DNA of 64,000 bases from Candidatus Woykebacteria bacterium (GTDB lineage Bacteria > Patescibacteriota > Microgenomatia > Woykebacterales > RBG-16-39-9b), in assembly GCA_040876345.1 (NCBI GenBank), contig JBBDPM010000006.1, forward strand, positions 456,547 through 520,546, read 5' to 3'. Made by a program: the position numbers and the translations under genes. This document shows, piece after piece, positions 6,729 through 25,376 of this stretch (position 1 is the first letter of the stretch; the number at the start of each line of letters is the position of its first letter). The notes beneath the pieces are model-generated. The model saw nothing but the letters and a program-made list of their open reading frames with translations. It was not told the origin of the DNA and made no database searches.

Positions 6729-6936
6729 ATATTATAAAGAGGACGATATCTTGGTAATGAAATTCTCTAATAACCCTGTCGATGATTCCTTTGAGGTTGA
6801 TGACAATGCTGTATTGGAGGTCAGTAAAGATAACGAGCCGGTCACATTGGAGGTTCTACACGCCTCAAAATTCTTCAACTCGATTAATAAAGTGCTGCCA
6901 AAAGAGGTAAAAGAAGAATTCTTCACCCCAGTCTAG
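6718..6936 (+). CDS. DUF2283-family protein (putative antitoxin partner)
   Basis: 72-aa acidic protein, MELKYYKEDDILVMKFSN...; classic partner of DUF4258. Confidence 0.5.
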   Translation: MELKYYKEDDILVMKFSNNPVDDSFEVDDNAVLEVSKDNEPVTLEVLHASKFFNSINKVLPKEVKEEFFTPV

Positions 6937-7025: not shown

Positions 7026-7055
7026 TTGACAACCCGAAGCCAAACCGAGTACGAT
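7026..7055 (+). promoter_or_regulatory. Sigma70-like promoter for the pilin operon (TTGACA-N18-TACGAT)
   Basis: Perfect -35 hexamer, 18-nt spacer, TACGAT -10, 18 nt before the ATG at 7074. Confidence 0.4.
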
Positions 7056-7073
7056 TAATTAGCAATACTGTCC

Positions 7074-8084
7074 ATGAAAAAAACGACCTTATTTTTTTTA
7101 GCGCTACTAACATTTCTATTATGCTTTAATTTTTATACTCCATCTACCTTTGCAGCTAATTTAAGCTGTAGTGTCTTACCAAATACTATAGCTGCAAACG
7201 GAGTGGCCACAGCTCAGCTCACAATAACAGAGACGGGCCATAGTCTTACTGCATGGTTCATGTTAGCTAAAAAACTACCAAATGGTGGTGAGTATTTATT
7301 GGGAGCGCAACAAATTAGTCAATCCTTCGATGGTCATAACTCAACTGGAACCAAAACAATTGGGCCGTTTGATAATGGCCAGGCTGGAGACTATGTAATT
7401 TATATTGGGTCTAGCAGAGAAGCCGTTGAATCTAGAAATTCTTCCGGTTGTACATTTGATGTTTCCCCAGGGCCTCCACCACCCACTGGGGTTCAGTGCG
7501 TAAATTTTGTCTCAATACAGCCACCAGAAGAGGAGATAACATCCGGATCAAATATTATTTTGAAATACACCAGAGGTCAGTCTTCAACAACCGCTGATTA
7601 TAAAGTTGACATTTATAATAGTGATAGTGTATTAACCCGAACCGTCGACAGATTAACAGACTCCGGAAGTCTTTGGTCAGCCAATGTTGGCTCACTCCAA
7701 GGTCCAGAGGAAGTTTATTCTGCCAAATTATACTATATAAAAGTGTCACCACCCCACCTTTGTAATTCAACGAACATTTCCATTCTTGATGAAAGAGCAG
7801 CCGGGCAATTTCCAGAGGGAGATGATCAGACTTCTGCTTTACCTAGCCGAGTAGAAAAAATTGTGAACTATTTAATTACGTTTGGAATTGGAATTGCTGG
7901 TGGAGTGGCGTTTTTGATGCTAGTGTACGGTGGATTTAAATTTATATTCAGCCTTGGAAATCCAGAGAATGTTCAACAAGGCAGAGAGGTGATAACGGCT
8001 GCTATAATTGGCTTGATTGTAGTTGTATTTTCTGTTTTTCTTCTAAAATTGATTGGGATTAGTATTCTTGGTTTGCCAATATGA
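7074..8084 (+). CDS. Secreted protein with C-terminal TrbC/VirB2-like pilin domain
   Basis: Signal peptide, Pro-rich linker (PGPPPPTG), and a C-terminal pair of hydrophobic helices (…GGFKFIFSLGNPENVQQGREVITAAIIGLIVVV…) that share the motif of the downstream pilin paralogs. Confidence 0.6.
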   Translation: MKKTTLFFLALLTFLLCFNFYTPSTFAANLSCSVLPNTIAANGVATAQLTITETGHSLTAWFMLAKKLPNGGEYLLGAQQISQSFDGHNSTGTKTIGPFDNGQAGDYVIYIGSSREAVESRNSSGCTFDVSPGPPPPTGVQCVNFVSIQPPEEEITSGSNIILKYTRGQSSTTADYKVDIYNSDSVLTRTVDRLTDSGSLWSANVGSLQGPEEVYSAKLYYIKVSPPHLCNSTNISILDERAAGQFPEGDDQTSALPSRVEKIVNYLITFGIGIAGGVAFLMLVYGGFKFIFSLGNPENVQQGREVITAAIIGLIVVVFSVFLLKLIGISILGLPI

Positions 8085-8989
8085 AATATATTAAGTACTT
8101 TTTTTTATTTCTTTTCTTTAACTTAGTTTTTGCATCTTTTGCTTTTGCAGCAATCCCAGAGGGCTGCGAAAACAGGGACTTTAATGGTGATGGTGAAGTT
8201 ACCGTTAGCGATCAGACTATAGTACTTGCCAAGGTAGGTGTAAGATTAGGTAACCCCAGTTATGAACCTAGATTTGATTTGAATAACGACGGTGTGATTA
8301 GTCAAAGTGATGTAGATCTTGTATCACAATGCTTACCAGTTGCTGATAGCCCAAGCAACAGTGGGTCCTCTACACCTAATATTTTTAACCAGATTATTGA
8401 TCCTCTCCAAGGCCGATTTAACAGTCTTGGGCAGATTGCAAGTATGATTTTACCCTATGTTTTTGTGCTTGGCGGGATGATTTCTCTTCTTTTCATCATC
8501 TGGGGCGGCTTTAGATACATGACCGCTCAGGGAGACCCGAAAGCAATCGCATCTGCTCGCGGGACAATTGTTTCTGCTGTGATTGGTCTAGTCCTTCTCG
8601 CCTCTGTATTTGCAATTATGAAAATTCTCGAGATTGTCTTCAGAATAAAAGTTTTGGCATCTGCTTCCATAGTTTACGCTGCGCAAGGGGTAGATATTGG
8701 GTGTGAGTTTAAACTTGGCGACAGATGTGTAAGAGCAGTTTTTCCGACCCTGGGAACTCTTTTGACTAGTGTAATTACTTTTGCTCTTGCAGCAGCCGGC
8801 CTAGTATTTTTTGCTATGCTTTTGTGGGGCGGGATGCGCTACATGTTATCCAGAGGCGATGATAAAATAATTGTTGAGTCCAGGCAAACACTCACCAATG
8901 CGGTAATTGGCCTCTTGATAGTAATCTCCTCATTCGCGATAATTAAACTTGTATCAATTGCAACTAGCGCTAATATTTTAGTTTTTTAA
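8081..8989 (+). CDS. Dockerin-repeat protein fused to two tandem TrbC/VirB2-like pilin domains
   Basis: Signal peptide; DFNGDGEVTVSD...DLNNDGVISQSD (dockerin-type Ca-binding repeats); two copies of hydrophobic helix, GG(F/M)RYM(T/L)..GD(P/D)K, then I..A(V/I)IGL(V/L). Confidence 0.6.
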   Translation: MKYIKYFFLFLFFNLVFASFAFAAIPEGCENRDFNGDGEVTVSDQTIVLAKVGVRLGNPSYEPRFDLNNDGVISQSDVDLVSQCLPVADSPSNSGSSTPNIFNQIIDPLQGRFNSLGQIASMILPYVFVLGGMISLLFIIWGGFRYMTAQGDPKAIASARGTIVSAVIGLVLLASVFAIMKILEIVFRIKVLASASIVYAAQGVDIGCEFKLGDRCVRAVFPTLGTLLTSVITFALAAAGLVFFAMLLWGGMRYMLSRGDDKIIVESRQTLTNAVIGLLIVISSFAIIKLVSIATSANILVF

Positions 8990-8993
8990 GTTT

Positions 8994-9386
8994 ATGAACC
9001 GACTCAAAAATCTCTCCTCCATTATTGGTCTTGCGACTCTATTTGCTCTAACTTCAACTTCTATTAAAGCTCAAGAAGATCCACCTGTTATTGATACAAT
9101 TACACCACCAGCCGGATTTCCCTTGGATTTAAACACCATTATCAAGAGTTCCGTGGCTCTTGCGCTTGCGATCGCTGGTTTAATTTTCTTTGTAATGTTA
9201 GTTGTCGGCGGATTTCGTTACCTAACTGCCGGTGGGGATGAAAAGGCAGCCCAAGAGGCAAGGAAAGCCCTAACAAATGCAGCCGTCGGCCTTGTTATAA
9301 TCGTAGCATCATTCTTAATAGCTCAGCTGTTATTCGCCGTCTTTGGCCTCTCCCCATTAGTAAACGTGGCCAATCCAACAAGTTGA
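8994..9386 (+). CDS. TrbC/VirB2-like pilin paralog
   Basis: Signal peptide (…TSIKAQE), VVGGFRYLTAGGDEKAAQEARKALTNAAVGLVIIV motif. Confidence 0.6.
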   Translation: MNRLKNLSSIIGLATLFALTSTSIKAQEDPPVIDTITPPAGFPLDLNTIIKSSVALALAIAGLIFFVMLVVGGFRYLTAGGDEKAAQEARKALTNAAVGLVIIVASFLIAQLLFAVFGLSPLVNVANPTS

Positions 9387-9393
9387 GGATTAA

Positions 9394-9729
9394 ATGGAAG
9401 ATTTAGGCACTCCTGGATTCTTTTTTTCAATACCAAACTTATTACCATTTAGGGATTTTAGTGAGCTTTTCAACGCCTTATTATCAATCGCTTTTTTTGT
9501 TGCCGGCCTTGCCTTTTTAGTTAACTTGATAGTGGTAGGCATTCAGTGGATGTCATCTGGCGGAGACCCCAAGGCACTAGATAGTGCAAGGCGCCGAATT
9601 GCAAACTCCTTCATAGGACTGGTCATCGTTGTGGCTGCTTTTGCAACCGCCTTAATTGTCGAGCAGGTGCTTGGGATTAAAATCGTCAGTGGGTTTTGTA
9701 TTCCAACACCAGGGGGGCAATGTTCATAG
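9394..9729 (+). CDS. TrbC/VirB2-like pilin paralog (no obvious cleavable signal peptide)
   Basis: VVGIQWMSSGGDPKALDSARRRIANSFIGLVIVV motif. Confidence 0.5.
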   Translation: MEDLGTPGFFFSIPNLLPFRDFSELFNALLSIAFFVAGLAFLVNLIVVGIQWMSSGGDPKALDSARRRIANSFIGLVIVVAAFATALIVEQVLGIKIVSGFCIPTPGGQCS

Positions 9730-9766
9730 AGTTTGAATTACATTCTTTAAATTTCTGAATTAGTTC

Positions 9767-9796
9767 TTGCCAAATCATTTTTAACATGCATATAAT
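9767..9796 (+). promoter_or_regulatory. Sigma70-like promoter (TTGCCA-N18-TATAAT)
   Basis: Consensus -10 and near-consensus -35, upstream of the pilin gene at 9833. Confidence 0.4.
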
Positions 9797-9832
9797 CTAG
9801 TAGTTAAAGGGAGGTGAAACTGCTCAATTATT

Positions 9833-10222
9833 ATGCGTAAACTAGCTACTTTACTAGCAACAGGAAGTACTTTTTTAACACTAGCGGGCCCAGCATTTGC
9901 ACAGGCAAATATCACGGGTTTTGACTCAAGTATAGTTCCATTCCCAAACCTAGGAAAGCTTTTAAGCAACATTTTGGCCCTTCTTTTCTTTTTTGCGGCC
10001 TTACTTGCTTTTCTTTTCATCATTATCGGTGGTATTCAGTGGATTACAGCTGGTGGTGATAAAGCAGCTGCTCAAGCTGCTCGGGACCGAATTACCGCTG
10101 CGGTTGTGGGGCTCTTAATTGTGGTCGCCGCTTTTGCGATAACCTTAATACTTTCGACAGTACTAGGAATTAATCTCTTTGATTATCGCTTCCCAACTGC
10201 ACCACAAACTGCCGGTACTTAA
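9833..10222 (+). CDS. TrbC/VirB2-like pilin paralog
   Basis: Signal peptide (…AGPAFAQAN), IIGGIQWITAGGDKAAAQAARDRITAAVVGLLIVV motif. Confidence 0.6.
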   Translation: MRKLATLLATGSTFLTLAGPAFAQANITGFDSSIVPFPNLGKLLSNILALLFFFAALLAFLFIIIGGIQWITAGGDKAAAQAARDRITAAVVGLLIVVAAFAITLILSTVLGINLFDYRFPTAPQTAGT

Positions 10223-11481
10223 AAGCTGGAAATAAAGCCTGCAAATCCGCCCGATCCTGTGAGAATAGTCAGATACCAAAGCGGGACGGCAAGGTGCGAG
10301 AGCAGTGGGTAATAAAAAACGAAAAGAAGAACCACCGAAGCAGCAAACCCAATCAAGAGAAATTCCCTTTTTTCAAAATTTTCCTCGATAAATTTGGTAA
10401 CTAATAAAATTCCAAACGGAATAGCCGAGAGTAAGTAATAGGAAAAGTTGTAGCGTGGGACAAAAAACCAAGGCAACCAAAAAGTAAGGAAAGCCCCAAT
10501 CAAAAAGGTCTTCTCACTTGTTACTAAGCTCCTAGTGCGGTGAAAGACTAAATCCTTCGCTCCCTTCAGAATGAGCACAATACTTCCCCAAAAGAGAGCT
10601 GGATTAAACATAAAAAATATGGCCTGGACGCTGCCGTACTCTTGTCTACCAATGTACGAGTACAAGGGGTTTAGAAGCCACGTCATGGGGGTTAGGTGAA
10701 AAACTAAATTGTTGATTTCTTGCTTTTGCTCCACTTTTTCAAAAACCCCACCAGTGTGATAATCAAACATTTTTGCGTGAAGGTTAATTAGATCGGGAAG
10801 ACTGTGGTTAAGTAAATAGAAACTGTATGATCCTAGATAGACGACTCCCACGATTAAAAATAGCAGCCCAAGCTTCGGTAAGGACTTTAAAGGTGTAGCC
10901 CTTTTTTTCCAAAGGTAAAAGCAACTTCCAAATGCTAGCAAAAAAAGACCATTCCATTTTGAGGCGATTGATAAACCGAAGAAGATGCCCGCCAACCCTA
11001 AGTATCTAGCCTTTTCTTCCTTGAAAAAGCTCCAAAAGAAAAGAGTAGCCGCCAAGGAAAAAGTGGCTACATAAATTTCTGGGACGGCTACTCTTGAGTT
11101 AACAAACCAAGAAAACTCAAAGGTGAGGAAAAGAGCAGAAAGCGTTGGAATTAAGCGCCCACCGAACATTTTCTTGGCGAGAAGATAAATAAAGATAACC
11201 CCCAAACTACCGACTAAAACTTCCGGAATTCGCCAACCCCAAGGATTATCTCCGAAAATCTTTATTCCGGCTGCCATGAAAAGCTTGGCTAGGGGCGGAT
11301 GTTCAAAATTTGCCTCAAAATTCCCAGCGAGGAAGGAGCGCGCTGTCGGTATGTAATAGGCTCCTTCATCAAAGTAAACATCAGACGGGGAAGTTAACCT
11401 TAAAAATTTGATAGCTAGGTTAGCGATAAAAAGAGTAACAAGAACATTAATCTCTGACCTAAAAAACTTTCTCATAGGCAA
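10219..11481 (-). CDS. Polytopic GT-C glycosyltransferase, GT39/PMT_2 (ArnT/PMT-like)
   Basis: YFDEGAYY (DE motif), HPPLAKL, GWRIPEVLVGSLGVIFIYLLAKK; about 11 TM segments. Confidence 0.6.
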   Translation of the reverse strand: MPMRKFFRSEINVLVTLFIANLAIKFLRLTSPSDVYFDEGAYYIPTARSFLAGNFEANFEHPPLAKLFMAAGIKIFGDNPWGWRIPEVLVGSLGVIFIYLLAKKMFGGRLIPTLSALFLTFEFSWFVNSRVAVPEIYVATFSLAATLFFWSFFKEEKARYLGLAGIFFGLSIASKWNGLFLLAFGSCFYLWKKRATPLKSLPKLGLLFLIVGVVYLGSYSFYLLNHSLPDLINLHAKMFDYHTGGVFEKVEQKQEINNLVFHLTPMTWLLNPLYSYIGRQEYGSVQAIFFMFNPALFWGSIVLILKGAKDLVFHRTRSLVTSEKTFLIGAFLTFWLPWFFVPRYNFSYYLLSAIPFGILLVTKFIEENFEKREFLLIGFAASVVLLFVFYYPLLSHLAVPLWYLTILTGSGGFAGFISSF

Positions 11482-11556
11482 TTTGATTTTAACACAGGTT
11501 TAACTGAGTCAGACTCAGTTTGACTTTAGTAACTTACCCGTGTTAATTTGTAAAAA

Positions 11557-11973
11557 ATGGGCCGACTTAAAAATCTTTTCACCACAGCTACTCTCTTTAT
11601 CACCGTTTTGTTAGCACCAAAAACTGTACTTGCTCAGATTGGAAACAAAGTCAGCGATGATCCCGGATACACCCCTCTTAAGGACCTGGAGGTGGTTTTT
11701 GCAAATGCGTTGAATGTAATATCCATCTTAGCTGGGTTTGCGGTACTTTTGATGATCGTGATTGGAGCGTTTCGTTATATGGTGGCTCAAGGAGATCCAA
11801 AGGCAGTAACCGCCGCTCGAAGCCAAATTACTTGGGCGATCGGCGGGCTCTTCTTCATAATTGCTGGCTGGCTAGTGATACTTTTTGTTTCCCAATTTAC
11901 TGGTCTTAACCTGACCAACTTCTGTGTTGACCTACCAACCGATGATTTAACTTGCTCAATTCAAAGGCCTTAA
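11557..11973 (+). CDS. TrbC/VirB2-like pilin paralog
   Basis: Signal peptide (…VLAQIG), IGAFRYMVAQGDPKAVTAARSQITWAIGGLFFII motif. Confidence 0.6.
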   Translation: MGRLKNLFTTATLFITVLLAPKTVLAQIGNKVSDDPGYTPLKDLEVVFANALNVISILAGFAVLLMIVIGAFRYMVAQGDPKAVTAARSQITWAIGGLFFIIAGWLVILFVSQFTGLNLTNFCVDLPTDDLTCSIQRP

Positions 11974-12608
11974 CGTAGCGATCCTTTTGCAACATAGTTA
12001 ATATTCAGCGTAGCAAGATCTGCTACATCCTGTTGGGCAAACCAACCATTGGCTCTACCTTTGTAAGTAGCGAGCGGTGCTTTTTCCACAAAGACAAAGA
12101 ATTGGTCGGTTCCTGCATCGTAACTTATTCTATATCCTGATCCAACCAGAGGGAGTTTACTTCTCACATTATTCATTGCTGAGTATAGGTTAGTCTGACT
12201 TGTACCTTTGCTTTTTGTAGTTGCGTTCCACATGAAAAGAGTTTTTGATTCGTACTTAACTTTAAACTCATATTTAGCTCCTGGCTTTAAATTTGACTGC
12301 AGGCTAAAAGTGGCCTTTGTACCAGCTAAATCAAGCCCCAGAGTGAATTTCACGGCCGGTTTTGACTCTATGGAAACCTCTTTTCCGGCAATACTGGAGT
12401 CAAAATTAACCGTTATTTGCGGGGTTACACTAATTCCAGTCTGATCCACTAAAGGCTCAACACTGACAACTTTAGGCAGTTCTTCTTGGGTTTTTCCTCT
12501 GCCGGTAGGGACCTCCTTTGGCTTTGGCACCAATAAAATGCCAATTATTACAAGCCCCAGGGAAAATCCAAAGGCGGTGAGAATTATTATTCTTTTCGTC
12601 TTGTCCAT
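11970..12608 (-). CDS. Membrane-anchored hypothetical protein with Ig-like beta-rich ectodomain
   Basis: N-terminal TM; beta-rich Ser/Thr/Lys sequence; the three minus-strand genes 11970-14951 overlap by 4 bp at 13608-13611 and are separated by 1 nt at 12609. Confidence 0.45.
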   Translation of the reverse strand: MDKTKRIIILTAFGFSLGLVIIGILLVPKPKEVPTGRGKTQEELPKVVSVEPLVDQTGISVTPQITVNFDSSIAGKEVSIESKPAVKFTLGLDLAGTKATFSLQSNLKPGAKYEFKVKYESKTLFMWNATTKSKGTSQTNLYSAMNNVRSKLPLVGSGYRISYDAGTDQFFVFVEKAPLATYKGRANGWFAQQDVADLATLNINYVAKGSLR

Positions 12609-12609
12609 A

Positions 12610-13611
12610 TTAGTTCTCCTTTAAATATTTGCTGGATACAGCGTTGACCACTACTACAACCTCCACTTCTTGCTTATTGATAGTAGCACTTCCGGAAAGC
12701 TTCCAAAAGGGAAGCAGAAGGCCAGTCTCATCATCAATTAAATATACAAGTTCAATATCATTAAAGACTACATTGCTTGCCGCGCTCAAGCTCCCGCCGT
12801 TGTAGCCTCCTGGTAAAATTACCCTACCTTGCCCTGCCCTCAATCTATTTTCTATTCCTCCCAGATTAATTAAAGGGTAGGTGCCGATATTTTCCGTGTC
12901 TATTGCAACTTGCATATAAGAAAACTTAACAACCTCGCCACTCCTGGAGAGACTCGCTGATACCAAGGGGTTTAGCCCGCTATTATATATTTTGCGATCT
13001 GAAAAATTACAAGTGAGGTTTGTTAAGAATTGGTCGGCAGTTTTTGGATCATCAATAAAATCCAGCTCCAAGCCATATTCTTTCAGAGCTAGGGTTTCCT
13101 CATGCAAAAGATCTTTTTCTAGATTTAACTTTTTCAAGAAATTCTGAGCGGTCTGGGTAGCTTCGTCTAAAGTATTTATTAGCCTTTGACTTTTTGGTTT
13201 GCTGATTTTTAAATAGCTAAAGGCTCCTGTGCTAATATTGTAGTTTACAATACCATTTTTATCCTGAATCTTCCCAAACAAATCCCCACCAGTATCTTTC
13301 GATGTCTGTAATTTTCCATCAATCTTAAATACTTTTGCTAAAAATTTAGCTTTTTCAACGCTCCCCTTGGATTCTTTAACCAAAGCCACTTTAGAGCTGC
13401 CTTCCAGTTTCTTGCCGGAAATCTCTAAAGAAAAATCTTGCCTAAACCCCTCACCCACTGCTTGCGTAGGGGGCAGTTTTCCAAAGATAATTCTCGAGTT
13501 TTCCCGCAATTGATTGATAAAACTAAGCCCAATTAACACCGTCACAAACACGGAGACAAAAACGGTGATATCCAAAAAGTATTTCCTAAAAGTATCTAGT
13601 GTAAAGTTCAT
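12610..13611 (-). CDS. Membrane-anchored hypothetical protein (candidate VirB8-like T4SS component)
   Basis: Single N-terminal TM with a large extracytoplasmic domain; context only. Confidence 0.4.
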   Translation of the reverse strand: MNFTLDTFRKYFLDITVFVSVFVTVLIGLSFINQLRENSRIIFGKLPPTQAVGEGFRQDFSLEISGKKLEGSSKVALVKESKGSVEKAKFLAKVFKIDGKLQTSKDTGGDLFGKIQDKNGIVNYNISTGAFSYLKISKPKSQRLINTLDEATQTAQNFLKKLNLEKDLLHEETLALKEYGLELDFIDDPKTADQFLTNLTCNFSDRKIYNSGLNPLVSASLSRSGEVVKFSYMQVAIDTENIGTYPLINLGGIENRLRAGQGRVILPGGYNGGSLSAASNVVFNDIELVYLIDDETGLLLPFWKLSGSATINKQEVEVVVVVNAVSSKYLKEN

Positions 13612-14951: not shown

Positions 14952-15011
14952 TTATCTATAATTCTATCCATTAACAAACTCAAACACAACTGTCTTAAAC
15001 ACGTGTTTTCG

Positions 15012-15039
15012 TTGACAATCGTACATTCTTAGATATAAG
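15012..15039 (+). promoter_or_regulatory. Sigma70-like promoter (TTGACA-N16-TATAAG) ending 10 nt before the ATG at 15050
   Basis: Consensus -35; 16-nt spacer; predicted leader of 0-4 nt. Confidence 0.45.
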
Positions 15040-15049
15040 ATTAAATCAA

Positions 15050-16885: not shown

Positions 16886-16937
16886 AATAAGAGAGAGGGC
16901 TGATCCGATACGATGCGGAAACAGCCCCCAATGCCTG

Positions 16938-19706
16938 TTAGGCAGCCTTGTCAGCTATGAACTTATAGAACTCCTCCTTTTCCAGTCGGGGGATGGTCCA
17001 TTTCCCGAAGTCCTCCCTGACTAATGTGTCGAAGCGCTCCTCGAGCACCTTCTCGGTCACCGTCTCCTCTTGATCGAATACTAGTGACCAATCGATCTCG
17101 GTCATTTTCGCTTCGCCAAACCTCTCCCTCAGCCCCAGGACCTTACCCTTGGACCATTCCACGGAGATCTCCGTGAGCGCGTCGAGCACCAGGAACAGAG
17201 GCATCCCGCCCTTGATCTCTGACTGGGCCGACTTAATGAGGTTTTCGATGTCGCGCAGGTAATGCGGTGTGCGTGTCCAGGAGCGTGCCCAGAACACCTG
17301 GAGGTCGATCTTCCCACACCGCCAGGCAAAGTCGTACGGGCGCTCCATGCTTTGTTGCATTTTGTGCTCGACTTCGGGGTCACCGGCCCTGTTGTACCGA
17401 ACCCCATACTGGCATTCGATCGCTACGTGGGCCGCATCTGGGAAAGTGAACCCACGCACACCCCTCTTCACCCTGGACTTGAAGACCATGTACAGGCTGA
17501 GGATGTCGTCGCAATGAGCGTGAAGCTCATCCAGTTCGTCGGCCATCGCCCAGATCACCTCAGGGGAGAGATCCTCAATCAGGCGCATGATCTTGGGCCA
17601 GACGAAGATCTCGCGGTTCTTCACAGCGCGTCGGAACACCCTGCGCAGACGCCGAAGGATCGGGCCCTTGGGCTGGTTGTTGAAGATCCGTTCCAGGACC
17701 TCCGTTTGGTGGAAGAACGTAACCTCGCGCCCACTCTTACGCGCTAGGTAGGCACTGCTGTCCTCGTCCTCCCCTGCTTCGCGGTCGAGTATGTTTTCTG
17801 GTACCACCTCCTTAACGATGGTGAACTTCGGGGTTCCATCCTCATTCTGGATGACACTAGCAACCCGGACGTATAGTTCGTTCATGATAGTGTCCGAATG
17901 GAGTCCCTTTTGGTTCTTGCCGATGTCCCGCGGGGCGATGAAGAAGAGTTCCTCCTGCTCGAGGATCTGCAACTCACCCCGTGAGTAGTTTCGCACCAGC
18001 CTAGTCTTCTCATGAAGATCTTTGCTGGTGATGATAGCACCCTCCCTAGCCGACACAATGGCACCGCGAATCATTGCGGCACCCTTGCAAACATCCTCAC
18101 GGCGACCGCCAAAGAGGCTGTAGTAAGTGCTGATCGTGTCCATCGGCGTTTCAGAGGCGTAGTTGGCAGTCGAGCGCATCATCGTGCGCCGGCGGTTCAT
18201 AGAACTCCGCCAAGCCCGCTTCTGTTCACTTGTCGCGTTCTCTGGAACTTCCCCCGGGTGTGGGTAGCGTTTGTTTAGCTCCCACCATACCCAGAAGTCG
18301 CCCCAGGTCTGCCGACTCTGACGCCCGCCCCAGTCTTCCCTCAATGCGGCAGCTACGTCTCTGGTGTCATACTCACCACCACCGTACTTCCAGACGCCGT
18401 TCCGGCTCATCCGGAAGTGGCCGTTGAAGCCGATGAGGTCGCGAATCTCCTCATAAGTCGGGTAGTCGATTAGGGAGTCGCTGACGTCCATCTTCTTGTA
18501 CCCAACCGCCCGAGGAGGACGAACTATCCAGCGGATTGAGTCCAAAGCTCGGAACCGTGCCCAAGCCCTGTCCCAGTTCGTCACTGAGCAAGTTACGTCA
18601 GCGTTCGGGCTGAACTGGTCGTACACCATGTCAAACCGGCGGGGATCCTCGACCCTCTCATCGATAAAGTCAGGGCCCCTGTCCGGTCCCCACCAGTCCA
18701 GGTGCTTCTCCAACTCGTCCATCACTTCGCCGTTTTCTGGATCCCTGCCCAGCTTGCGGCTAAGATTCTGGACTATGTGTGCCCGAAGCTTAAGCTTCCA
18801 GTCGTAGCGGCGCTGCCCGTCAAAGAACGCCCTGTCGGCGACGAGGCTCACGAAGTGAAGGAACTCGAAGTCGTTTAGGGCGCCGATTGTGACAACACGC
18901 TCCTTGGTGTTGATGTCGTAGACCGTGAGCCGATCGTACAGCTCACGGATTCCACCACGGGCTGCTCGGCGGACTGCTCGAGGAGCCTTCTCCAGACCAC
19001 CATAAGGCAGAAGCTTGTCGGGGATCACCCAGTTGGGGTTTTCCCTCTGGAACTTCCGCATCCAGTTACGCAGGAGGTGCTTGAACACGCGGGGCGTCTT
19101 GTTGAACACCTCGCGCTCTTGAGTCTCCCTCTCCTGGTGCGTGTCGTCCACCCACCAAAGAGTTTCGAACACGATGTCCTCGTTGGCAAGCAAGATCGAC
19201 CACTCGTGCTCGTTAGGCTCTTTATTAACGACAGTGGCGACGACCTCGAAGTCGACTCCCTCAACCTCCTTATCCTTCGGGGGAAGGTTGAGAGAAATTC
19301 TGCCGTCGGTGAAAACCCGGACCCTCACCCGTTTCTTGGTTTTTTTGCCTGCCTCCTCTACCGGCTTACCGTCCCCACCAATTATGAGGTCTCCCTCCCC
19401 GTCCTTCTTGTATACTTTTTCGGTTATTGCAACCCGCCGGTAGAAGTATCTCTTGAAGGCGGTGACCGGGACTAGGGTGCGGATGATTGTGTACCGCACA
19501 TCTTGGAAGTTGAAGTTGCGATGGTCCGCCTGCTTGGTACCGAGAATGCCCCAAAGCGCAGTGTCTATGGTCGCTACGAAACCGATCTGACCGTTAACGA
19601 TCTCATCAGTGCTAAACCAGCGCTTTTGCTCGGTCCAGCGCACTATACCGAACTCGTTTTCCTCCTGTTCACCGTTTTCGCCTTCCGGTTCTTCGCCGTC
19701 TAGCAT
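16938..19706 (-). CDS. Large orphan protein (922 aa) of unknown function in a GC-rich island
   Basis: Single uninterrupted ORF with an AAGGAGGT RBS 8 nt upstream of the ATG. GC is about 60% against a 40% background. The protein is Trp/Arg/Asp/Glu-rich and has no recognisable catalytic motif (no Walker A, GDD, YxDD or HUH motif seen). Reverse-strand ORFs in this span are GC-induced artefacts. Confidence 0.55.
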   Translation of the reverse strand: MLDGEEPEGENGEQEENEFGIVRWTEQKRWFSTDEIVNGQIGFVATIDTALWGILGTKQADHRNFNFQDVRYTIIRTLVPVTAFKRYFYRRVAITEKVYKKDGEGDLIIGGDGKPVEEAGKKTKKRVRVRVFTDGRISLNLPPKDKEVEGVDFEVVATVVNKEPNEHEWSILLANEDIVFETLWWVDDTHQERETQEREVFNKTPRVFKHLLRNWMRKFQRENPNWVIPDKLLPYGGLEKAPRAVRRAARGGIRELYDRLTVYDINTKERVVTIGALNDFEFLHFVSLVADRAFFDGQRRYDWKLKLRAHIVQNLSRKLGRDPENGEVMDELEKHLDWWGPDRGPDFIDERVEDPRRFDMVYDQFSPNADVTCSVTNWDRAWARFRALDSIRWIVRPPRAVGYKKMDVSDSLIDYPTYEEIRDLIGFNGHFRMSRNGVWKYGGGEYDTRDVAAALREDWGGRQSRQTWGDFWVWWELNKRYPHPGEVPENATSEQKRAWRSSMNRRRTMMRSTANYASETPMDTISTYYSLFGGRREDVCKGAAMIRGAIVSAREGAIITSKDLHEKTRLVRNYSRGELQILEQEELFFIAPRDIGKNQKGLHSDTIMNELYVRVASVIQNEDGTPKFTIVKEVVPENILDREAGEDEDSSAYLARKSGREVTFFHQTEVLERIFNNQPKGPILRRLRRVFRRAVKNREIFVWPKIMRLIEDLSPEVIWAMADELDELHAHCDDILSLYMVFKSRVKRGVRGFTFPDAAHVAIECQYGVRYNRAGDPEVEHKMQQSMERPYDFAWRCGKIDLQVFWARSWTRTPHYLRDIENLIKSAQSEIKGGMPLFLVLDALTEISVEWSKGKVLGLRERFGEAKMTEIDWSLVFDQEETVTEKVLEERFDTLVREDFGKWTIPRLEKEEFYKFIADKAA

Positions 19707-20532
19707 CGTGTAAACCTCCTTGGGTTGCTAAACCCCTCAGGCAAGAGCGCTAGCGCAACAAGACTGAGAGGACGCTGTCCAGCATACGTTCGTGAGGGTT
19801 GAAAACCCCTGAGCGGTAATACCGCTTTGGAGCCTATTCCCTGTATCACTTGGTGTATGCTAGAGCAGCAGCAACACCAAGGGGAGTTTGAATGTTAGTT
19901 CTTGGATTTAGGATCTAGGATTTTAACTTAAATCCAACATCCTGAATCTAATATCCAAAATCCCCCTGGCGTTACCCCGCTGTCTAGCGGAAACCAAGGA
20001 AGTCTTTTTGTTCGTTTTACTTAATTTTTGGCGAATCGTAATGTTATAGGTTTCCAATTCGCCTTATATTCGCTTGTTAAGGTACTCACCATCGCAAGTT
20101 TCAACTTACGAAAATGGGCTCTGACTAACGACCTTTCGTTAACCAGAGCCCACCTTCGGGGACATATGCAAAAACTCACCATGGAGGTGGCTCTGGTATA
20201 ATTAATTTCTTAATTCTAAGTTCTGCTTCGTTCATTGTTCTTAATTAACTACTTATTACTAATAACTAAGTTGCTAGTTTAGCACAAATCAGCTTCAATG
20301 TCAATCCTATAGGATCCTCGGTGATTAAATTCATTCGCTTCGCTCAAGTAATTTAGGTACTCTTGGGTTCTGCGGGCGGGCGTAGATTCTAGGTTTCTAT
20401 TCGTGTACTTTACGATACAGTATGAGTCGGTTGATTTCGAATCTACTATCGACCATAATATACCCTACAGTTTAATCAAAGGTATTTTTCGGCGAAGAAT
20501 TCTCGAAGCCAGCTGAAGGTTAATCAAACAAT

Positions 20533-21162
20533 ATGCAGCAGCATCCTGTCCCGCAGAACATAACCGGGTTTGAATTTAAGCTTATCGGCTTTTTGACGAT
20601 TAAGCAATTTGCTTACCTTGCGGTTGCTGGAATTTTTAGCTTCGTCTTTTTTATTTCCCCAATACCTGTTCTAGTTAAGATCATTGTTATTTCTCCAATT
20701 GCTCTCTTTGGTGCTGCCCTTGCCTTTGTGCCGGTAAACGGCCTGCCTTTTGAAAAGTGGCTAGTTGTTTTTATAAGCTCAATTTACTCTCCTTCAAGGA
20801 GGGTCTGGCACAAAGGCCTTAAGGAAATAAGTTTTCTGGCTCCGTCCTTTTCACGCTATCTAAAAAGACCCCCTGGACCAGCGCCAAAAGTGTTGCCCGA
20901 CAAATCTCGCCTGGAAAGCTTTTTAACCCAGATGCGGGGAAGGGGTGATAAAGCCGCCGTTGACAGAATAGAGGAGCAGCGGATTTCCCAAATAGACTTT
21001 AGTGCGACCGTGCCCCACTTCAGTGAAATTGATAATGAAGGTGAGTTAGAACCAACTTATAGCAAGGGGTCTGCGGGAAACAAACTGCCTGATATTTATG
21101 ACTATCCAGAAGCGCAAATAAATCCGGTCTCTACGAGCAGTGAGGTACAAAAAGATGAATAG
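20533..21162 (+). CDS. Small membrane protein with N-terminal TM hairpin (VirB3/PrgI-like candidate)
   Basis: Two or three TM helices in the first 90 aa, hydrophilic tail; located upstream of the VirB4-like gene. Confidence 0.4.
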   Translation: MQQHPVPQNITGFEFKLIGFLTIKQFAYLAVAGIFSFVFFISPIPVLVKIIVISPIALFGAALAFVPVNGLPFEKWLVVFISSIYSPSRRVWHKGLKEISFLAPSFSRYLKRPPGPAPKVLPDKSRLESFLTQMRGRGDKAAVDRIEEQRISQIDFSATVPHFSEIDNEGELEPTYSKGSAGNKLPDIYDYPEAQINPVSTSSEVQKDE

Positions 21163-22750
21163 TAATACTGAAGCTGAGGTCAAATTTACATACCCGGGTA
21201 AGAATCTCGCCCATCGTTTTAGACCGACTGAATCTATCCGCCAAATAATTGAGCCTTTGATAAAAAGGGCCCACCCCTTTGCTTCTCAAGTGAACTTTCA
21301 TCCAGTAGCCACACTGAACCTGCCGGATAAAAACGTCTACGTCCGGCCCATTCGCAACTTGCAACCAAGACATATATCACCTCTGCCTCTTCAAGGTCCT
21401 TTTGCCTTACCAATAAGGGGGGAGAGGACTTTCGAGCTCTCCGCGGACCTTCAAGACCAAATCCAAAAGCGGGTTGGTGTGGTAATGAGCCCTTACGAAG
21501 TCGACCCCAAAACGCGACCGGTACCGCCCGGACTTACGCCGCAGCCAGAACCCAACCCACCAATTCAAGTAAACAAACCGCAACAGAGTGTTCCTGTATC
21601 AGCGCCTATTCTATCCACCCAAACTCAAGTGGCTGTAGCGCCGCCAACTCAAGTTACAAGCTTTCAGACTAATCACCTACCAACTACACCCTCAACCCCA
21701 GTTGCCACCCAGGCGCCGCTTCCTAGAGTGCTGTCACCAACATCTCAGGTTAGTCAAGTACCGGTGGTCCAAATACCCCAAACCATTACTACTCCGCAAG
21801 CCCCACGTGCCCAGACTATTCAAACTAGCCAACCACCTCTAGCTCCAGTGCCTGTTCAAAAACCGATTGCTTTTTCACCAACTAATCAGGCCCTGATTGA
21901 TGATGTTGCCAAACTAAAGGAGGAACTTCTTAAAGAGTCCATTACAACCAATGTTACTCAAGAGAGGATCGGTGAACTTTCAAATAAATACCAATCTCAA
22001 ATTGTCAATTTAATTAACCAAAACAACTACCTGATTTCCGAAATTAACAATTTTAAAGCGAAGCTCACCGATGAATCTAGAAAAAGGCAGGCCTCAGAAA
22101 ATCAACTGTCAGTAGTTACCTCCCAATTAAAAAATGAGGTTGAAAAGCTCAAGATTGAGCGCGACGGACTTCTTGGTAAATTGAAAACGTCTGAGACCCA
22201 GTTTAGAAACTACCACGAAGCCCAGGAAAAAAATCTTCCCACTAAAATTGAGCTTACCCAGCTAAACGCCAAGATTGCGGAGTTGGAAAGGGAAAAATCA
22301 GAATCAGAAACAAAAGCAATTAAGCTCAAGAGCTTAGTTAATGAACTCCAAGAAAAAGGTGCCCAAAAACACTCTCAACTAAAAGAGATGGTGATGCCCA
22401 CACTGTCTTTTGGTAAATCTCAATATGATGCGCCTGTCAGAGTGATACAACCTACTCAAGCAATTGGTAAAATGGCTCCCGCCCTAACCACAATACCAAA
22501 CGTTGTGAGCGGCATAATCAAAGACCGAAACGGTCTTCTACTAACTGATGTGGTGGTAGTGGTAAAGGACGCTTCAGGGAATCCGGTTAGAGCTCTAAAA
22601 TCTAATAAAATTGGTCAGTTTGCGATATCGACTCCGCTGCCCGAGGGGACTTACACAATGGAACTCGAAAGAGAAGAGAACGAATTCGACGTGGTTCAAA
22701 TAAAGCTGGGGGGGAAAATAGTACCCCCAATTGAGATAAGAGCCCGCTAG
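21155..22750 (+). CDS. Pro/Gln/Thr-rich, coiled-coil protein with C-terminal carboxypeptidase-regulatory-like (transthyretin-fold) domain
   Basis: GAGGT RBS 8 nt before ATG 21155; low-complexity P/Q/T region; heptad coiled coil; C-terminal sequence GIIKDRNGLLLTDVVVVVKDASGNPV…. Confidence 0.5.
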   Translation: MNSNTEAEVKFTYPGKNLAHRFRPTESIRQIIEPLIKRAHPFASQVNFHPVATLNLPDKNVYVRPIRNLQPRHISPLPLQGPFALPIRGERTFELSADLQDQIQKRVGVVMSPYEVDPKTRPVPPGLTPQPEPNPPIQVNKPQQSVPVSAPILSTQTQVAVAPPTQVTSFQTNHLPTTPSTPVATQAPLPRVLSPTSQVSQVPVVQIPQTITTPQAPRAQTIQTSQPPLAPVPVQKPIAFSPTNQALIDDVAKLKEELLKESITTNVTQERIGELSNKYQSQIVNLINQNNYLISEINNFKAKLTDESRKRQASENQLSVVTSQLKNEVEKLKIERDGLLGKLKTSETQFRNYHEAQEKNLPTKIELTQLNAKIAELEREKSESETKAIKLKSLVNELQEKGAQKHSQLKEMVMPTLSFGKSQYDAPVRVIQPTQAIGKMAPALTTIPNVVSGIIKDRNGLLLTDVVVVVKDASGNPVRALKSNKIGQFAISTPLPEGTYTMELEREENEFDVVQIKLGGKIVPPIEIRAR

Positions 22751-22752
22751 CT

Positions 22753-23484
22753 ATGGCTACGAGTAAAAAGATCTATACAACACAGGAACATTTAGATGTC
22801 GATGACATTAGGGACTCTCTCGTGGTGCTAAAAAATGGCGAGGCTGTCGCCATGATTCAAACTAGCGCCATCAATTTTGACCTTCTTTCTGAAAGAGAGC
22901 AGGACGCCATGATCTTTGCTTATGCCGCCCTACTAAACTCGCTTACATTTCCAATCCAAATTTTAGTGAGATCAAAGCGTCTGGACATTTCTAATTATCT
23001 TGATAATCTAGCTCTAGCCCGGCGCCAAGTTAAAAACCCCCTTTTAGCTGGGCAAATTGACAAATACGCTTTCTTTATACGAGATCTAGTTTCCCAAAAC
23101 CAAGTGCTAGATAAAAGATTTTACATAGTGGTACCCTACCTTGCAATTAGCCTGGCCCAACTAAAAACCGCTGGACTAGATTTACTAGGCAAAAAGGCCC
23201 CACCCACCAACAAATGGGTGACCCTAGAAAAGGCTAAGGTAAATCTAGAGCCTAAAATCGCTCACATTACTAAGCAGTTAAACCGAATCGGGATTAAAGC
23301 TAAAGCCCTTAACACTGAGGAGCTAGTTGAGCTTTTCTATGATCTTTACAATCCAGAGATGGTCGGTGAGCAAAAGGCAGCCCTATCTCCTGAGGAGTAC
23401 ACCACGCCAATAGTTGAGCCGGCTGTGAGCCCAGTAATTGAAGAGGGTGGGCAAAATCAAAATGTAGTCAGGGAGCAACCATGA
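22753..23484 (+). CDS. VirB4/TraE N-terminal-domain-like protein (possible split VirB4)
   Basis: LVVLKNGEAVAMIQTSAINFDLLSEREQDAMIFAYAALLNSLTFPIQILV resembles the N-terminus of Gram-positive VirB4 ATPases; ATGA overlap with the next ORF. Confidence 0.45.
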   Translation: MATSKKIYTTQEHLDVDDIRDSLVVLKNGEAVAMIQTSAINFDLLSEREQDAMIFAYAALLNSLTFPIQILVRSKRLDISNYLDNLALARRQVKNPLLAGQIDKYAFFIRDLVSQNQVLDKRFYIVVPYLAISLAQLKTAGLDLLGKKAPPTNKWVTLEKAKVNLEPKIAHITKQLNRIGIKAKALNTEELVELFYDLYNPEMVGEQKAALSPEEYTTPIVEPAVSPVIEEGGQNQNVVREQP

Positions 23485-25376
23485 GTATCAATCCTTTCAA
23501 AAAAAAGGCAGTTATAGATCCCCAAGAAACCGAGCTCGCTCAGACTCGCGCTAAAGTCACTCAAGTGCTTGGTAGGGGGATGACCGACGTAAAAGATGTT
23601 ATTGCCCCCTCTGCAATAGAGGTGGACTTCGACTATATAAAAATTGGCGAGACTTACTTCCGCACGTTATTTGTGGTTGGCTACCCAAGATTTGTCGGCG
23701 CTAATTGGCTCTCTCCCATAATTAACTTTGACCACACCTTAGATATTTCCTTTTTCTACTACCCCGTCGAGTCTAAAGGGATTTTGGATGATCTTAGGAG
23801 AAAAATAGCGGAGATGGAAGCAACTCTTGAATCAGATCTTGAAGCCGGTAGAGTCCTTGACCCCGGAGTAAGAATTGCTCTCGAGGATGCTCAAGCTCTC
23901 CAGGAGCAGCTTACGGCTGGCGTCGAGAGGTTTTTTCAATTCTCGTTTTACATTACTATCCCCGCTTTTTCCTTGGAGGAGCTCTCATCAGTGACAAAAC
24001 AAGTTGAGTCAACTCTTGGATCTCTTCTGGTAATTTCGAAACACGCCACTCTGCAGCAGGAAAGGGCCTTTCAATCAGTACTACCAACCTTCACCGACAA
24101 ACTCTTGGTTACTAGGAATATGGACACCACTTCACTGGCCACAACCTTTCCTTTTACTTCAAGTGAGCTAACTGCCAACAAGGGAATTCTTTACGGGATA
24201 AACGAGCACAACGGTTCCCTAGTAATCTTTGATCGCTTTAGCCTGGAGAATGCAAACAGTGTTGTCTTTGCAAAAAGTGGGGCTGGAAAAAGCTACTTAG
24301 TTAAGCTTGAGGTGCTTCGCCAACTTATGTTTGGGACTGAGGCGATTGTAATTGATCCTGAGGACGAATATATAGCCCTGGCTAATGCGATCGGTGGAGA
24401 AGTTATAAAATTTAAGGCGGCCGAGCAAGTTAAAATTAATCCTTTTGATCTTTCCGGAATCTATCAAGAAGGGGAGAACGAGCTGGGTCTAAAAATCCTT
24501 ACTCTACACTCTTTATTTAGAGTCATGATGGGAACCCTCACACCGACTGAGGACGCTCTCCTTGATAGGGCGCTGGTCGCTACTTACAAATTGAAGGGCA
24601 TCACGCCAGATCCCGCAACCCAAACTAAAGAACCACCGGTGATGGAGGACCTTTACAATGTTTTGCTAAACATGGGGGAGCCTGAAGCCAAAAATATGGC
24701 TGCCAGACTTGAGAAATTTATAAGAGGATCACTGTCTGGTATATTCGACCAACAAAGCACTATAAATATAAAGAACACCTTCACCGTTTTTTCTATACGA
24801 GACATGGAGGATGAACTACGACCAATCGCTATGTTTATTATCCTCGATTTTATCTGGACGCGGATTAAAAAGGAGCTGAAAAGGCGGATATTAGTTGTTG
24901 ACGAGGCTTGGTATCTGATGAAACATCAAGACTCGGCAGCCTTTCTTTATTCAATCGCTAAAAGAGCCCGAAAATATTTTCTGGGACTAACCTCAATAAC
25001 TCAAGACGTTGAGGATTTTCTTGGAAGCGACTACGGTAAGGCAATTGTCACCAACTCTTCGTTACAATTTTTGCTTAAACAATCAACTGCTTCAATCGAT
25101 AAGCTTGCTGAAGTGTTTTACCTTTCGGAGGGGGAGAAAAACCTTCTCCTTTCCTCAGAAATAGGGGAGGGTCTTTTCTTTGCCGGCCAAAATCACGTTG
25201 CGATTCGAATTCAAGCCGCGCCTCATGAACACGTTCTAATTACCTCAAACCCCGAAGAATTAAACCGAAACGAGGCTCTTGCAGCTGCACAACAGAATGC
25301 TTCTCAAAACCCCACTACAACGCAGGTGGCCGCTCAAGATCAAAAAACCAACCCTTACCCAGAAAACCCAGTCTAG
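23481..25376 (+). CDS. VirB4/TraE-like conjugation ATPase
   Basis: Walker A AKSGAGKSY, Walker B ILVVDEAWYLM; 631 aa, similar in size to pIP501 TraE-type VirB4. Confidence 0.75.
   Translation: MSINPFKKKAVIDPQETELAQTRAKVTQVLGRGMTDVKDVIAPSAIEVDFDYIKIGETYFRTLFVVGYPRFVGANWLSPIINFDHTLDISFFYYPVESKGILDDLRRKIAEMEATLESDLEAGRVLDPGVRIALEDAQALQEQLTAGVERFFQFSFYITIPAFSLEELSSVTKQVESTLGSLLVISKHATLQQERAFQSVLPTFTDKLLVTRNMDTTSLATTFPFTSSELTANKGILYGINEHNGSLVIFDRFSLENANSVVFAKSGAGKSYLVKLEVLRQLMFGTEAIVIDPEDEYIALANAIGGEVIKFKAAEQVKINPFDLSGIYQEGENELGLKILTLHSLFRVMMGTLTPTEDALLDRALVATYKLKGITPDPATQTKEPPVMEDLYNVLLNMGEPEAKNMAARLEKFIRGSLSGIFDQQSTINIKNTFTVFSIRDMEDELRPIAMFIILDFIWTRIKKELKRRILVVDEAWYLMKHQDSAAFLYSIAKRARKYFLGLTSITQDVEDFLGSDYGKAIVTNSSLQFLLKQSTASIDKLAEVFYLSEGEKNLLLSSEIGEGLFFAGQNHVAIRIQAAPHEHVLITSNPEELNRNEALAAAQQNASQNPTTTQVAAQDQKTNPYPENPV

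Follow-up and report, generated by a model that had tools for sequence, protein, structure and literature searches.

A type IV secretion locus with six VirB2-like pilin genes beside dnaA in a Candidatus Woykebacteria genome

What could a type IV secretion system (T4SS) be for that carries six pilin genes and, as far as can be recognized, neither a relaxase nor a coupling protein? The question is raised by an 18 kb stretch (positions 7074-25376) of a 64-kb piece of chromosome from Candidatus Woykebacteria, class Microgenomatia (contig JBBDPM010000006.1); the whole of that analyzed piece is called the window below. An earlier note on this DNA, made from the letters alone, had described here a T4SS of Gram-positive type with arrayed VirB2/TrbC-like pilins, which might not be self-transmissible. 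This core reading was borne out: the pilins match Pfam PF18895, the ATPase classifies as VirB4, neither a relaxase nor a coupling protein was found in ~84 kb, and the locus is probably not a self-transmissible element. In the map of open reading frames (ORFs), the T4SS gene cluster runs from the pilins through VirB4, with every ORF of the earlier list in its place (Table 1); absent from that list were the TrsD-like gene, the conserved 536-residue gene and the anomalous 922-residue gene. We read the locus, with a probability of roughly 0.78, as a chromosomal, vertically inherited T4SS typical of Patescibacteria (candidate phyla radiation, CPR). As the Patescibacteria T4SS has already been described (Wang et al. 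2023, Quinonero-Coronel et al. 2025), the locus is a further example of a system reported in 2023-2025 and not a discovery.

Pilins, ATPase and channel subunits

All six ORFs of the array scored above the gathering threshold of Pfam PF18895 (T4SS_pilin), with E-values from 1.3e-15 to 7.9e-07. Together they hold seven modules, two of them in pilin 2, each aligned as a hydrophobic helix, a loop of the form GG(F/I)x(Y/W)...GDxK...AR...(I)GL and a second hydrophobic helix. Pairwise identity among the modules is 21-45% (mean 33%), and a search with the module profile through all frames of the 64 kb revealed no additional copy. Hydropathy and alignment showed the trait of the VirB2/TrbC superfamily, namely a signal peptide and two hydrophobic helices separated by a short polar loop. 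A signal-peptide-like N-terminus was apparent from sequence and hydropathy in five of the six proteins, pilin 4 being the exception, in agreement with the earlier statement that most of them carry one. When the six were scanned together with 108 pilin ORFs from related loci, 109 of the 114 matched PF18895 and 15 also matched TrbC/VirB2 PF04956 at E<0.01 (best 3.2e-11). These latter matches appear to tie the pilin family to VirB2 by sequence, though the best match within the window, that of pilin 5, is sub-threshold (near full length, 17.9 bits against a cut-off of 27.9, E 0.0037). The earlier assignment of the shared C-terminal module to TrbC/VirB2-type pilins is thus supported, the module falling in a T4SS pilin family. 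A profile of the seven modules compared with all Protein Data Bank (PDB) sequences retrieved no pilin, its sole match being a designed protein (E 0.067).

The two longest pilins depart from this plain design. The ectodomain of pilin 1 gave no family match, and long first pilins are seen again in related arrays. In pilin 2, PF18895 matched in two stretches and the module profile twice, next to a Dockerin_1 domain (29.2 bits). A sigma-70-like site lies at 7026-7055, just 5' of pilin 1; sites of this kind are no more frequent in the region than expected by chance, promoter and terminator scans having given counts not above shuffled expectation.

At the other end of the cluster, the ATPase carries Walker A (GAGKS) and Walker B (VVDEAW) motifs in its translation and matches P-loop_TraG and AAA_10 in Pfam. 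It scored above the cut-off of NCBIfam NF045971, aligning to positions 176-734 of 752 with the first ~175 profile positions missing, and it matched PDB 4ag5, the solved C-terminal domain of a Thermoanaerobacter VirB4, with an E-value of 1.1e-51. The FtsK_SpoIIIE and T4SS-DNA_transf families were not among its matches. The protein is the VirB4-like ATPase with Walker A and B motifs of the earlier note and not an FtsK/SpoIIIE protein. The gene just 5' of it, of 243 residues, matches TrsD as well as N-terminal parts of VirB4 profiles (VirB4_plasma positions 103-233, CD1110 positions 13-86), and VirB4 is therefore effectively encoded in two pieces. A two-piece VirB4 with a separate TrsD has been described for the Patescibacteria lineage (PMC12102498). 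A scan of species-representative genomes with VirB4 yielded 80 related loci (designated by L numbers), in which VirB4 is 60-85% identical to that of the window. The TrsD-like gene was found in 79 of them, its orthologs carrying PF26593 (TraC-like), and a profile of the TrsD-like family retrieved nothing from the PDB.

The small protein with a transmembrane hairpin, earlier taken as VirB3-like, was placed in the PrgI family by a score of 46.7 bits; PrgI was found in 66 of the 80 loci. The 536-residue protein that follows it had matches in 76 loci, a CarboxypepD_reg match below cut-off (E 3.6e-05), and nothing meaningful in a single-sequence PDB search. In L012, L016, L019, L022, L026, L029 and others, PrgI and this protein form one ORF (spanning L012:7859-9244, L016:7249-8856, L019:7514-9064 and L022:7471-9264), and the counterpart of the 536-residue protein is then the C-terminal portion of the joined product. 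In the window and its closest relatives the two ORFs are separate, overlapping by 1-23 nt or, in L010, abutting. Given the known topology of VirB3, the 536-residue protein is probably cytoplasmic.

For the polytopic 611-residue protein, the earlier label VirB6/TrbL-like failed by sequence and held by fold. The likeness is not visible by sequence because the protein has no Pfam or NCBIfam match, PF04610 TrbL/VirB6 and PrgH included. Moreover, a profile of its family retrieved nothing from PDB sequences, its 176 homologues in the database are all unannotated, and one of 36 relatives matched in a TrbL/VirB6 family search (E 0.013). Hydropathy indicates a signal peptide, an ectodomain of ~185 residues, at least six transmembrane helices and a hydrophilic tail. 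From 61 homologues, AlphaFold gave a model with a predicted local distance difference test score (pLDDT) of 72, and of >90 in the transmembrane core. In a Foldseek comparison of this model with 350,542 PDB chains, ranks 1-8 were all TrwI/VirB6 of R388 (best E-value 2.3e-3, probability 1.00, TM-score on the target 0.48-0.51). In many related loci the gene lies, furthermore, directly 5' of PrgI. Predicted fold, topology and gene position together support a VirB6 role, though the sequence-family test fails. VirB6 has been reported to be scarce in Microgenomatia, 'suggesting extreme sequence divergence' (PMC12102498); a subunit scarce or undetectable there by profile searches is here present and recognizable by its modelled fold. 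A homologue of the protein, P0039 (796 aa), has a precomputed TrbC/VirB2 PF04956 domain and may be a VirB6-pilin fusion.

Chromosomal setting and function

Immediately past the end of virB4, after 4 bp, begin recF, dnaN and dnaA. The block of PrgI, the 536-residue gene, TrsD and VirB4, followed by dnaN, dnaA and yidC, is widely kept, each gene being present in 54-80 of the 80 loci; recF, which here lies between VirB4 and dnaN, is found in 15 only. The VirB6-like gene was detected in 38 loci and pilin genes in 27. Loci whose record titles are informative belong to Woykebacteria, Curtissbacteria, WWE3, Levyibacteria and other Patescibacteria; many of the remaining records have generic or plainly mistaken titles. 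Records of metagenome-assembled genomes such as L003, L004, L008, L012 and others are titled 'uncultured Gammaproteobacteria' or 'Nanoarchaeia', which looks like mislabelling. Two longer loci recovered via the VirB6-like protein (L081/L082 and L083) reproduce the whole arrangement from SpoIID onward, including the pilin order and the Big_5/hydrolase pair. Between the window and L003, identity is 85% for VirB4 and 77% for TrsD, compared with 57% for dnaA and 50% for dnaN, and this higher conservation of the secretion genes is in keeping with a core role in the cell. A scan of the main ORFs across the window, together with Pfam lists for 10 kb beyond either end (~84 kb in all), showed no relaxase, coupling protein or integrase, in accordance with the earlier note, which had recognized no relaxase or VirD4. 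Nor were mobile-element borders found in these ~84 kb, the flanks consisting of housekeeping genes in conserved order. The locus is a core chromosomal system, not an island.

This setting bears directly on the possibility that the locus is the mating-pair-formation (MPF) module of a conjugative or integrative element, whether a decaying one or one still active whose relaxase and coupling protein are encoded at another place. Such an origin would be in keeping with the ATPase, which among curated models fits best a 'conjugal transfer ATPase' family from integrative and conjugative elements (ICEs) of Gram-positive bacteria, and with a weak likeness of the pilin modules to the pilin-like protein of Mycoplasma ICE (NF045849, below cut-off). 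Against it stand the lack of any relaxase, coupling protein, integrase or repeat boundary in the ~84 kb, the same core gene order beside dnaN-dnaA in most of the 80 loci and in several lineages, and the stronger conservation of VirB4 and TrsD relative to dnaA and dnaN. VirD4-like genes do often lie far from virB4 in Patescibacteria, which leaves room for a distant partner, but the published survey counted only 109 relaxases, rarely near virB4 (PMC12102498). All genes of the locus are intact, and it is therefore not a remnant. Taken together, we consider a conjugative element very unlikely.

Import instead of transfer between mates was weighed as well. ComB of Helicobacter is a T4SS-derived uptake system, and a ComB- or Ced-like importer that takes DNA or nucleotides from the host or its surroundings, compensating for missing nucleotide biosynthesis, would fit the absence of a relaxase and a coupling protein. 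T4SS-derived uptake is also represented by Ced in Sulfolobales (PMC12102498), and a review speculates on 'uptake of various molecules' (PMC12857230). The window's ATPase does match CedB (E 1.9e-13, far below cut-off), a match that amounts to generic VirB4/HerA similarity, with 50 bits compared to 393 bits for the CD1110 family, and no DNA-binding or nuclease component was recognized in the locus. Moreover, competence in the Saccharibacterium S. epibionticum needs type IV pili and ComEC, and deletion of comEC is viable whereas the T4SS is essential (PMC12857230), so that the essential role there is not ComEC-dependent DNA uptake. An importer consequently appears improbable to us.

The conservation seen at the level of the locus extends to the individual pilins. 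In L081 every one of the six is matched one-to-one by an ortholog at the corresponding place in the array, with 46-76% identity (66, 69, 76 and 63% for pilins 3, 4, 5 and 6), compared to 28-50% for the non-orthologous L081 pilins. In pilin 1 the module is 79% identical to that of its ortholog, and the ectodomain aligns only locally. The paralogs are therefore older than these species, and each is under constraint. Three Woykebacteria genomes keep the two-module pilin as the second gene of the array (302 aa in the window, 480 aa in L081, 201 aa in L083), with N-terminal and linker inserts that vary among the three; two modules were found in none of the 108 pilin ORFs lying within 10 kb of virB4 in other related loci. 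The hairpins of VirB2 and TraA have both ends outside. If each hairpin of the tandem protein is likewise oriented, its two-module design would be topologically consistent.

Judged from these comparisons, ancient and individually conserved paralogs fit distinct structural roles better than antigenic variation. Such roles are the most likely ones for the six, for example those of major or minor subunits, of a subunit with two covalently joined modules, or of components at the tip or in adhesion. The earlier note had called an array of this size unusual, which was not upheld: 441 arrays of 2-11 VirB2-like pilin genes, with 25% mean identity and most abundant in Microgenomatia and Saccharimonadia, have been reported in Patescibacteria (PMC12102498), and S. 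epibionticum has six essential pilins (PMC10633639). It had also suggested antigenic or adhesive diversification. A related reading makes the array a system of antigenic or phase-variation cassettes, like that proposed for the VirB2 paralogs of Anaplasma and Bartonella, in which the paralogs would be interchangeable and selected for diversity. The low identity among the paralogs (21-45%) and the varying array size between genomes would agree with that idea, which was also raised in the published survey (PMC12102498), but the positional orthology argues in the opposite direction, as do the two-module pilin and the long first pilin, which hold their positions in three genomes. Neither repeats nor recombination cassettes were seen, nor silent module copies elsewhere in the window, and the individual essentiality of all six S. 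epibionticum pilins is unexpected for redundant variants (PMC10633639). Interchangeable antigenic variants are thus unlikely, and as an account of the whole array we regard cassettes as highly improbable. Free variation is concentrated in the N-terminal ectodomains and linkers, and adhesive diversification is therefore possible for those parts, so that of the earlier suggestion the antigenic half fails for the modules and the adhesive half may apply to ectodomains and linkers. Old, individually conserved paralogs point to a heteromeric filament and not to antigenic variation.

On the model of VirB-type systems, the pilins of the Patescibacteria-type T4SS that we favor would enter the membrane with the help of Sec/YidC and be matured by signal peptidase, and VirB4, docked on VirB3 and VirB6, would extract them. 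The extracted pilins would feed a filament or conduit growing from the VirB6 platform, the hydrolase would open the wall for the passage of this structure, and the N-terminal ectodomains of pilins 1 and 2 would face outward. By extension from S. epibionticum, the apparatus may serve contact or exchange with a host bacterium (protein delivery or uptake) and not conjugation.

Several points weigh against this interpretation. Neither a pilus nor secretion has been observed in Microgenomatia, and the function is carried over from a single Saccharibacterium. A coupling protein could lie elsewhere in the genome, VirD4-like genes being far from virB4 in many Patescibacteria (PMC12102498) and the ~84 kb covered being part of a contig of 586 kb. 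Within the locus, no VirB8-like component was recognized, the VirB6 assignment relies on a predicted structure with modest Foldseek E-values, and the conserved 536-residue and 922-residue proteins receive no role in the favored model. As for the pilins, the PF04956 link is sub-threshold within the window, and none of the solved VirB2 or TraA pilins is matched by their modules in sequence.

Envelope genes and the slot before PrgI

Table 1. Features of the T4SS cluster, in window coordinates.
Feature	Position	Strand	Length (aa)	Characteristics
Pilin 1	7074-8084	+	336	Signal peptide, ~230-aa ectodomain, C-terminal VirB2-like two-helix module; PF18895 37.6 bits
Pilin 2	8081-8989	+	302	Signal peptide, dockerin-like domain, two tandem modules (four transmembrane helices)
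Pilin 3	8994-9386	+	130	PF18895 49.8 bits
Pilin 4	9394-9729	+	111	PF18895 31.6 bits; without signal-peptide-like N-terminus
Pilin 5	9833-10222	+	129	PF18895 29.5 bits
GT-C glycosyltransferase, PMT_2/PMT type	10219-11481	-		PMT_2 76.1 bits, PMT 61.7 bits; inside pilin array
Pilin 6	11557-11973	+	138	PF18895 33.5 bits
Big_5 bitopic protein	11970-12608	-	212	Ig-like ectodomain, Big_5 36.2 bits; N-terminal transmembrane segment
333-aa bitopic protein	12610-13611	-	333	N-terminal transmembrane segment
VirB1-like wall hydrolase	13608-14951	-	447	Transmembrane anchor, SLT-like region, M23 endopeptidase
VirB6-like channel subunit	15050-16885	+	611	VirB6 role from predicted fold
Orphan protein	16938-19706	-	922	Without transmembrane segment or signal peptide; in G+C-rich patch
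PrgI/VirB3-like protein, transmembrane hairpin	20533-21162	+	209	PF12666 46.7 bits vs cut-off 27; transmembrane region residues 17-73
536-aa protein	21140-22750	+	536	Pro/Gln-rich region, coiled coil, C-terminal CarboxypepD_reg-like beta-sandwich; without transmembrane segment
TrsD-like protein	22753-23484	+	243	NCBIfam TrsD E 2.2e-10, below cut-off
VirB4 ATPase	23481-25376	+	631	MPF-FATA-like; NCBIfam NF045971 (CD1110 family) 392.9 bits, cut-off 325

The minus-strand genes adjoining the array encode the PMT_2-type glycosyltransferase, the Big_5 protein, the 333-residue protein and the hydrolase; after the hydrolase come the 611-residue gene, the 922-residue gene on the minus strand, a gap of 827 bp, and then PrgI, the 536- and 243-residue genes and the ATPase. 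In L081/L082 the PMT gene likewise lies between pilins 5 and 6, and L083 lacks it; its product is a candidate glycosylase of the pilin ectodomains. Distinct from it, a separate envelope-glycosylation cluster at 59388-63968 (minus strand) contains a second PMT_2 glycosyltransferase (61720-63249) with GT4, UbiA and GT2 genes.

The hydrolase, described in the earlier note as a membrane protein with SLT and M23 domains, has a solid Peptidase_M23 match (51.1 bits) and an N-terminal transmembrane segment, both as claimed, while its match to SLT PF01464 falls just under the threshold (19.5 bits against 21.3, E 7e-4). VirB1 homologues bearing M23 domains have been reported in Patescibacteria (PMC12102498). 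The Big_5 protein is a conserved neighbor of the hydrolase, a Big_5 gene of 215 aa being found at the same place in L081. For the 333-residue protein there was no match in Pfam, NCBIfam, PDB or PHROGs; a gene of 324 aa takes its place in L083, and a VirB8-like assembly factor is a possible identity for it.

Directly 5' of the array, two small overlapping ORFs at 6462-6936 (plus strand) encode 88 aa without a family and 72 aa of DUF2283; their layout resembles a toxin-antitoxin pair, and the same pair is annotated in the source record. Further upstream, at 681-1874 (minus strand), two adjacent tRNA-Ser genes, the transfer-messenger RNA (tag ANKDLAVRYAFA) and smpB lie together, and the neighborhood of smpB, SpoIID and the pilin array is kept in a second Woykebacteria genome, L083.

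The 922-residue gene stands apart from the rest of the cluster. Its product is identical to a protein from a metagenome-assembled genome of Candidatus Woykebacteria (GCA_040881185.1, contig JBBEDR010000006.1). It has no Pfam, NCBIfam or PHROGs family and no detectable fold relative; the PHROGs search, which took in seven proteins of the locus, gave two weak and uninformative matches only. An exhaustive profile search of 1.84 billion cluster representatives retrieved only 25 relatives, and a protein search with a 23-sequence alignment of the family gave three proteins, all known from an earlier search. Family members of ~900-1200 aa, all on the minus strand, occur at L002:3-1739, L003:3057-6560, L004:1818-4649, L005:1840-5412, L008:2028-4922, L010:2838-5696 and L012:4359-7559, and a local profile identified the large same-slot ORFs of L003, L004, L005, L008, L010 and L012 as homologues. 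So far the family is known only from Woykebacteria-type loci, where it sits between the VirB6-like gene and the VirB3-like one. It diverges very fast, the window protein being 27% identical to its L003 homologue over 194 residues, compared with 85% for VirB4. Nine further family members and ten same-slot large ORFs showed no credible Pfam domain, with one sub-threshold match to DUF4028 (E 0.005). The gene was tried as a divergent relaxase or coupling protein and rejected as such, having no P-loop and no family or fold match.

Its G+C content at third codon positions (GC3) is 0.72, uniform along the gene, compared to 0.29-0.47 in the remaining genes of the window that were examined, both T4SS-locus and housekeeping ones. 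An excess of GC3 over the neighboring genes was also present in all seven homologues examined (eight genomes with the window). A recent single horizontal transfer is unlikely as the cause, because homologues at 16-40% identity share the excess, and a single old transfer should have ameliorated long ago. This leaves as hypotheses a substrate or specificity factor that recombines with GC-biased conversion, or repeated allele replacement.

The slot itself, between the VirB6-like and PrgI genes, is occupied differently in other lineages. Curtissbacteria-type loci have there a different ORF of 1100-1300 aa without GC3 excess, likewise on the minus strand (L016:2388-5699, L017:1596-4997, L019:1937-5863, L021:2250-5942), and hhalign found no relationship between the Woykebacteria-type and Curtissbacteria-type large ORFs (probability 0.3%); WWE3-type loci have no gene in the slot. 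It looks like a variable cargo position. One proposal is that the 922-residue protein is a translocated substrate or host-specificity factor, diversified by recombination or allele replacement with GC-biased gene conversion during an arms race with the host bacterium, which we consider unlikely. If true, the non-homologous large gene of the Curtissbacteria type in the same slot would make the slot a cargo position. A hypervariable orphan gene of anomalous codon composition amid the machinery offers a concrete substrate candidate.

Between the divergently oriented 922-residue and PrgI genes, the gap (19707-20532) contains no convincing ORF, and an Rfam scan of it gave only sub-threshold noise from microRNA models; it includes one imperfect 23-nt inverted repeat (20109-20158) and a stretch of low G+C (0.36-0.38) at ~20000-20450. 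Elsewhere in the window, high GC3 was also noted in a MaoC-type dehydratase (48791-49627, GC3 0.68) and a short-chain dehydrogenase (49755-50645, GC3 0.72), both on the plus strand, in a genome with a GC3 of ~0.4; this pair is probably a recent acquisition from a high-G+C donor.

Comparison with known systems

The closest counterparts are the T4SS of other Patescibacteria, which have been reviewed as a new T4SS type (PMC12857230). For Ca. Southlakia epibionticum ML1, the S. epibionticum strain studied, transposon sequencing showed that growth on the host requires the cluster SEML1_0006-0019 (Wang et al. 2023, PMC10633639). The cluster encodes a lysozyme, a 1113-aa protein without assigned function, VirB4, a 293-aa protein, PrgI, a 998-aa protein, an NTF2-like protein, a VirB6-like protein and six PF18895 pilins, each of the six pilin genes being individually essential, and it lacks a relaxase and a coupling protein (PMC10633639). 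Quinonero-Coronel et al. (2025) described a distinct Patescibacteria clade of VirB4 related to MPF-FATA, with TrsD adjoining virB4 and with PrgI; in the same survey relaxases were near-absent and the T4SS lay close to dnaA/dnaN (PMC12102498). The window agrees with these systems in its monoderm-type VirB4 with a separate TrsD-like gene directly 5', in PrgI/VirB3, the VirB6-like protein and the wall hydrolase, in its six PF18895 pilins, in the dnaA/dnaN position and in having no relaxase or coupling protein nearby. One or two unannotated proteins of ~1000 aa within the cluster are a further feature shared with S. epibionticum.

The two clusters are not identical, however. The window belongs to Microgenomatia (Woykebacteria) and not to Saccharimonadia, its hydrolase is of the SLT-like plus M23 kind and not a lysozyme, and no NTF2-like VirB8 candidate was recognized in it. 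The two-module dockerin pilin, the PMT gene within the array and the splitting of PrgI and its C-terminal extension into two genes are further differences of the window, and its large unannotated protein comes from a tiny family with raised GC3.

With the MPF-FATA systems (pCF10 Prg/Pcf, CTn2 CD1110, pGO1 Trs), the window shares a VirB4 of the CD1110 model, TrsD and PrgI homologues, a two-domain wall hydrolase and the absence of an outer-membrane core. The order prgH-prgI-prgJ of pCF10 is presumably mirrored by the VirB6-like, PrgI and VirB4 genes of the window. Those systems have a relaxase and a coupling protein, are carried on plasmids or ICEs and use surface adhesins without VirB2-type pilins, whereas the locus shows neither a relaxase with coupling protein nor plasmid/ICE carriage nor surface adhesins, and has six pilin genes. 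The VirB/D4 systems of the MPF-T type (A. tumefaciens VirB, R388 Trw) resemble it in a pilin with signal peptide and two-helix hairpin around a short polar loop, in the VirB6 fold predicted for the polytopic protein and in functions of VirB1, VirB3 and VirB4 type. They differ in that VirB5, VirB7, VirB9, VirB10, VirB11 and VirD4 are missing from the window and its envelope is monoderm; similarity of its pilins to VirB2 is marginal in sequence (PF04956, E 0.0037), with none to solved pilins.

Divergent tandem VirB2-like genes in or beside a T4SS locus are also known from Anaplasma phagocytophilum and Bartonella, where the arrays have been read as antigenic variation in animal pathogens (PMC12102498). 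The paralogs of the window differ from these in being old, position-keeping and each conserved, some with large ectodomains or two modules. Mycoplasma ICE (Mbov_0395 pilin-like, Mbov_0397 VirB4) likewise combine a wall-less or monoderm lineage with a small two-helix pilin-like protein beside VirB4; pilins 1 and 2 of the window match NF045849, and the ATPase and TrsD match NF045975, all below the curated cut-offs. The Mycoplasma system differs in being a mobile element with a single pilin-like gene.

To our knowledge, no T4SS other than that of Patescibacteria is known to be essential for the cell that carries it, or to have VirB2-like pilins in a monoderm. To this type the window adds nothing categorical; it provides a clean, fully syntenic Microgenomatia example with testable details, among them a covalent two-module pilin conserved in a Woykebacteria clade, and its orphan gene and pilin architecture offer modest leads.

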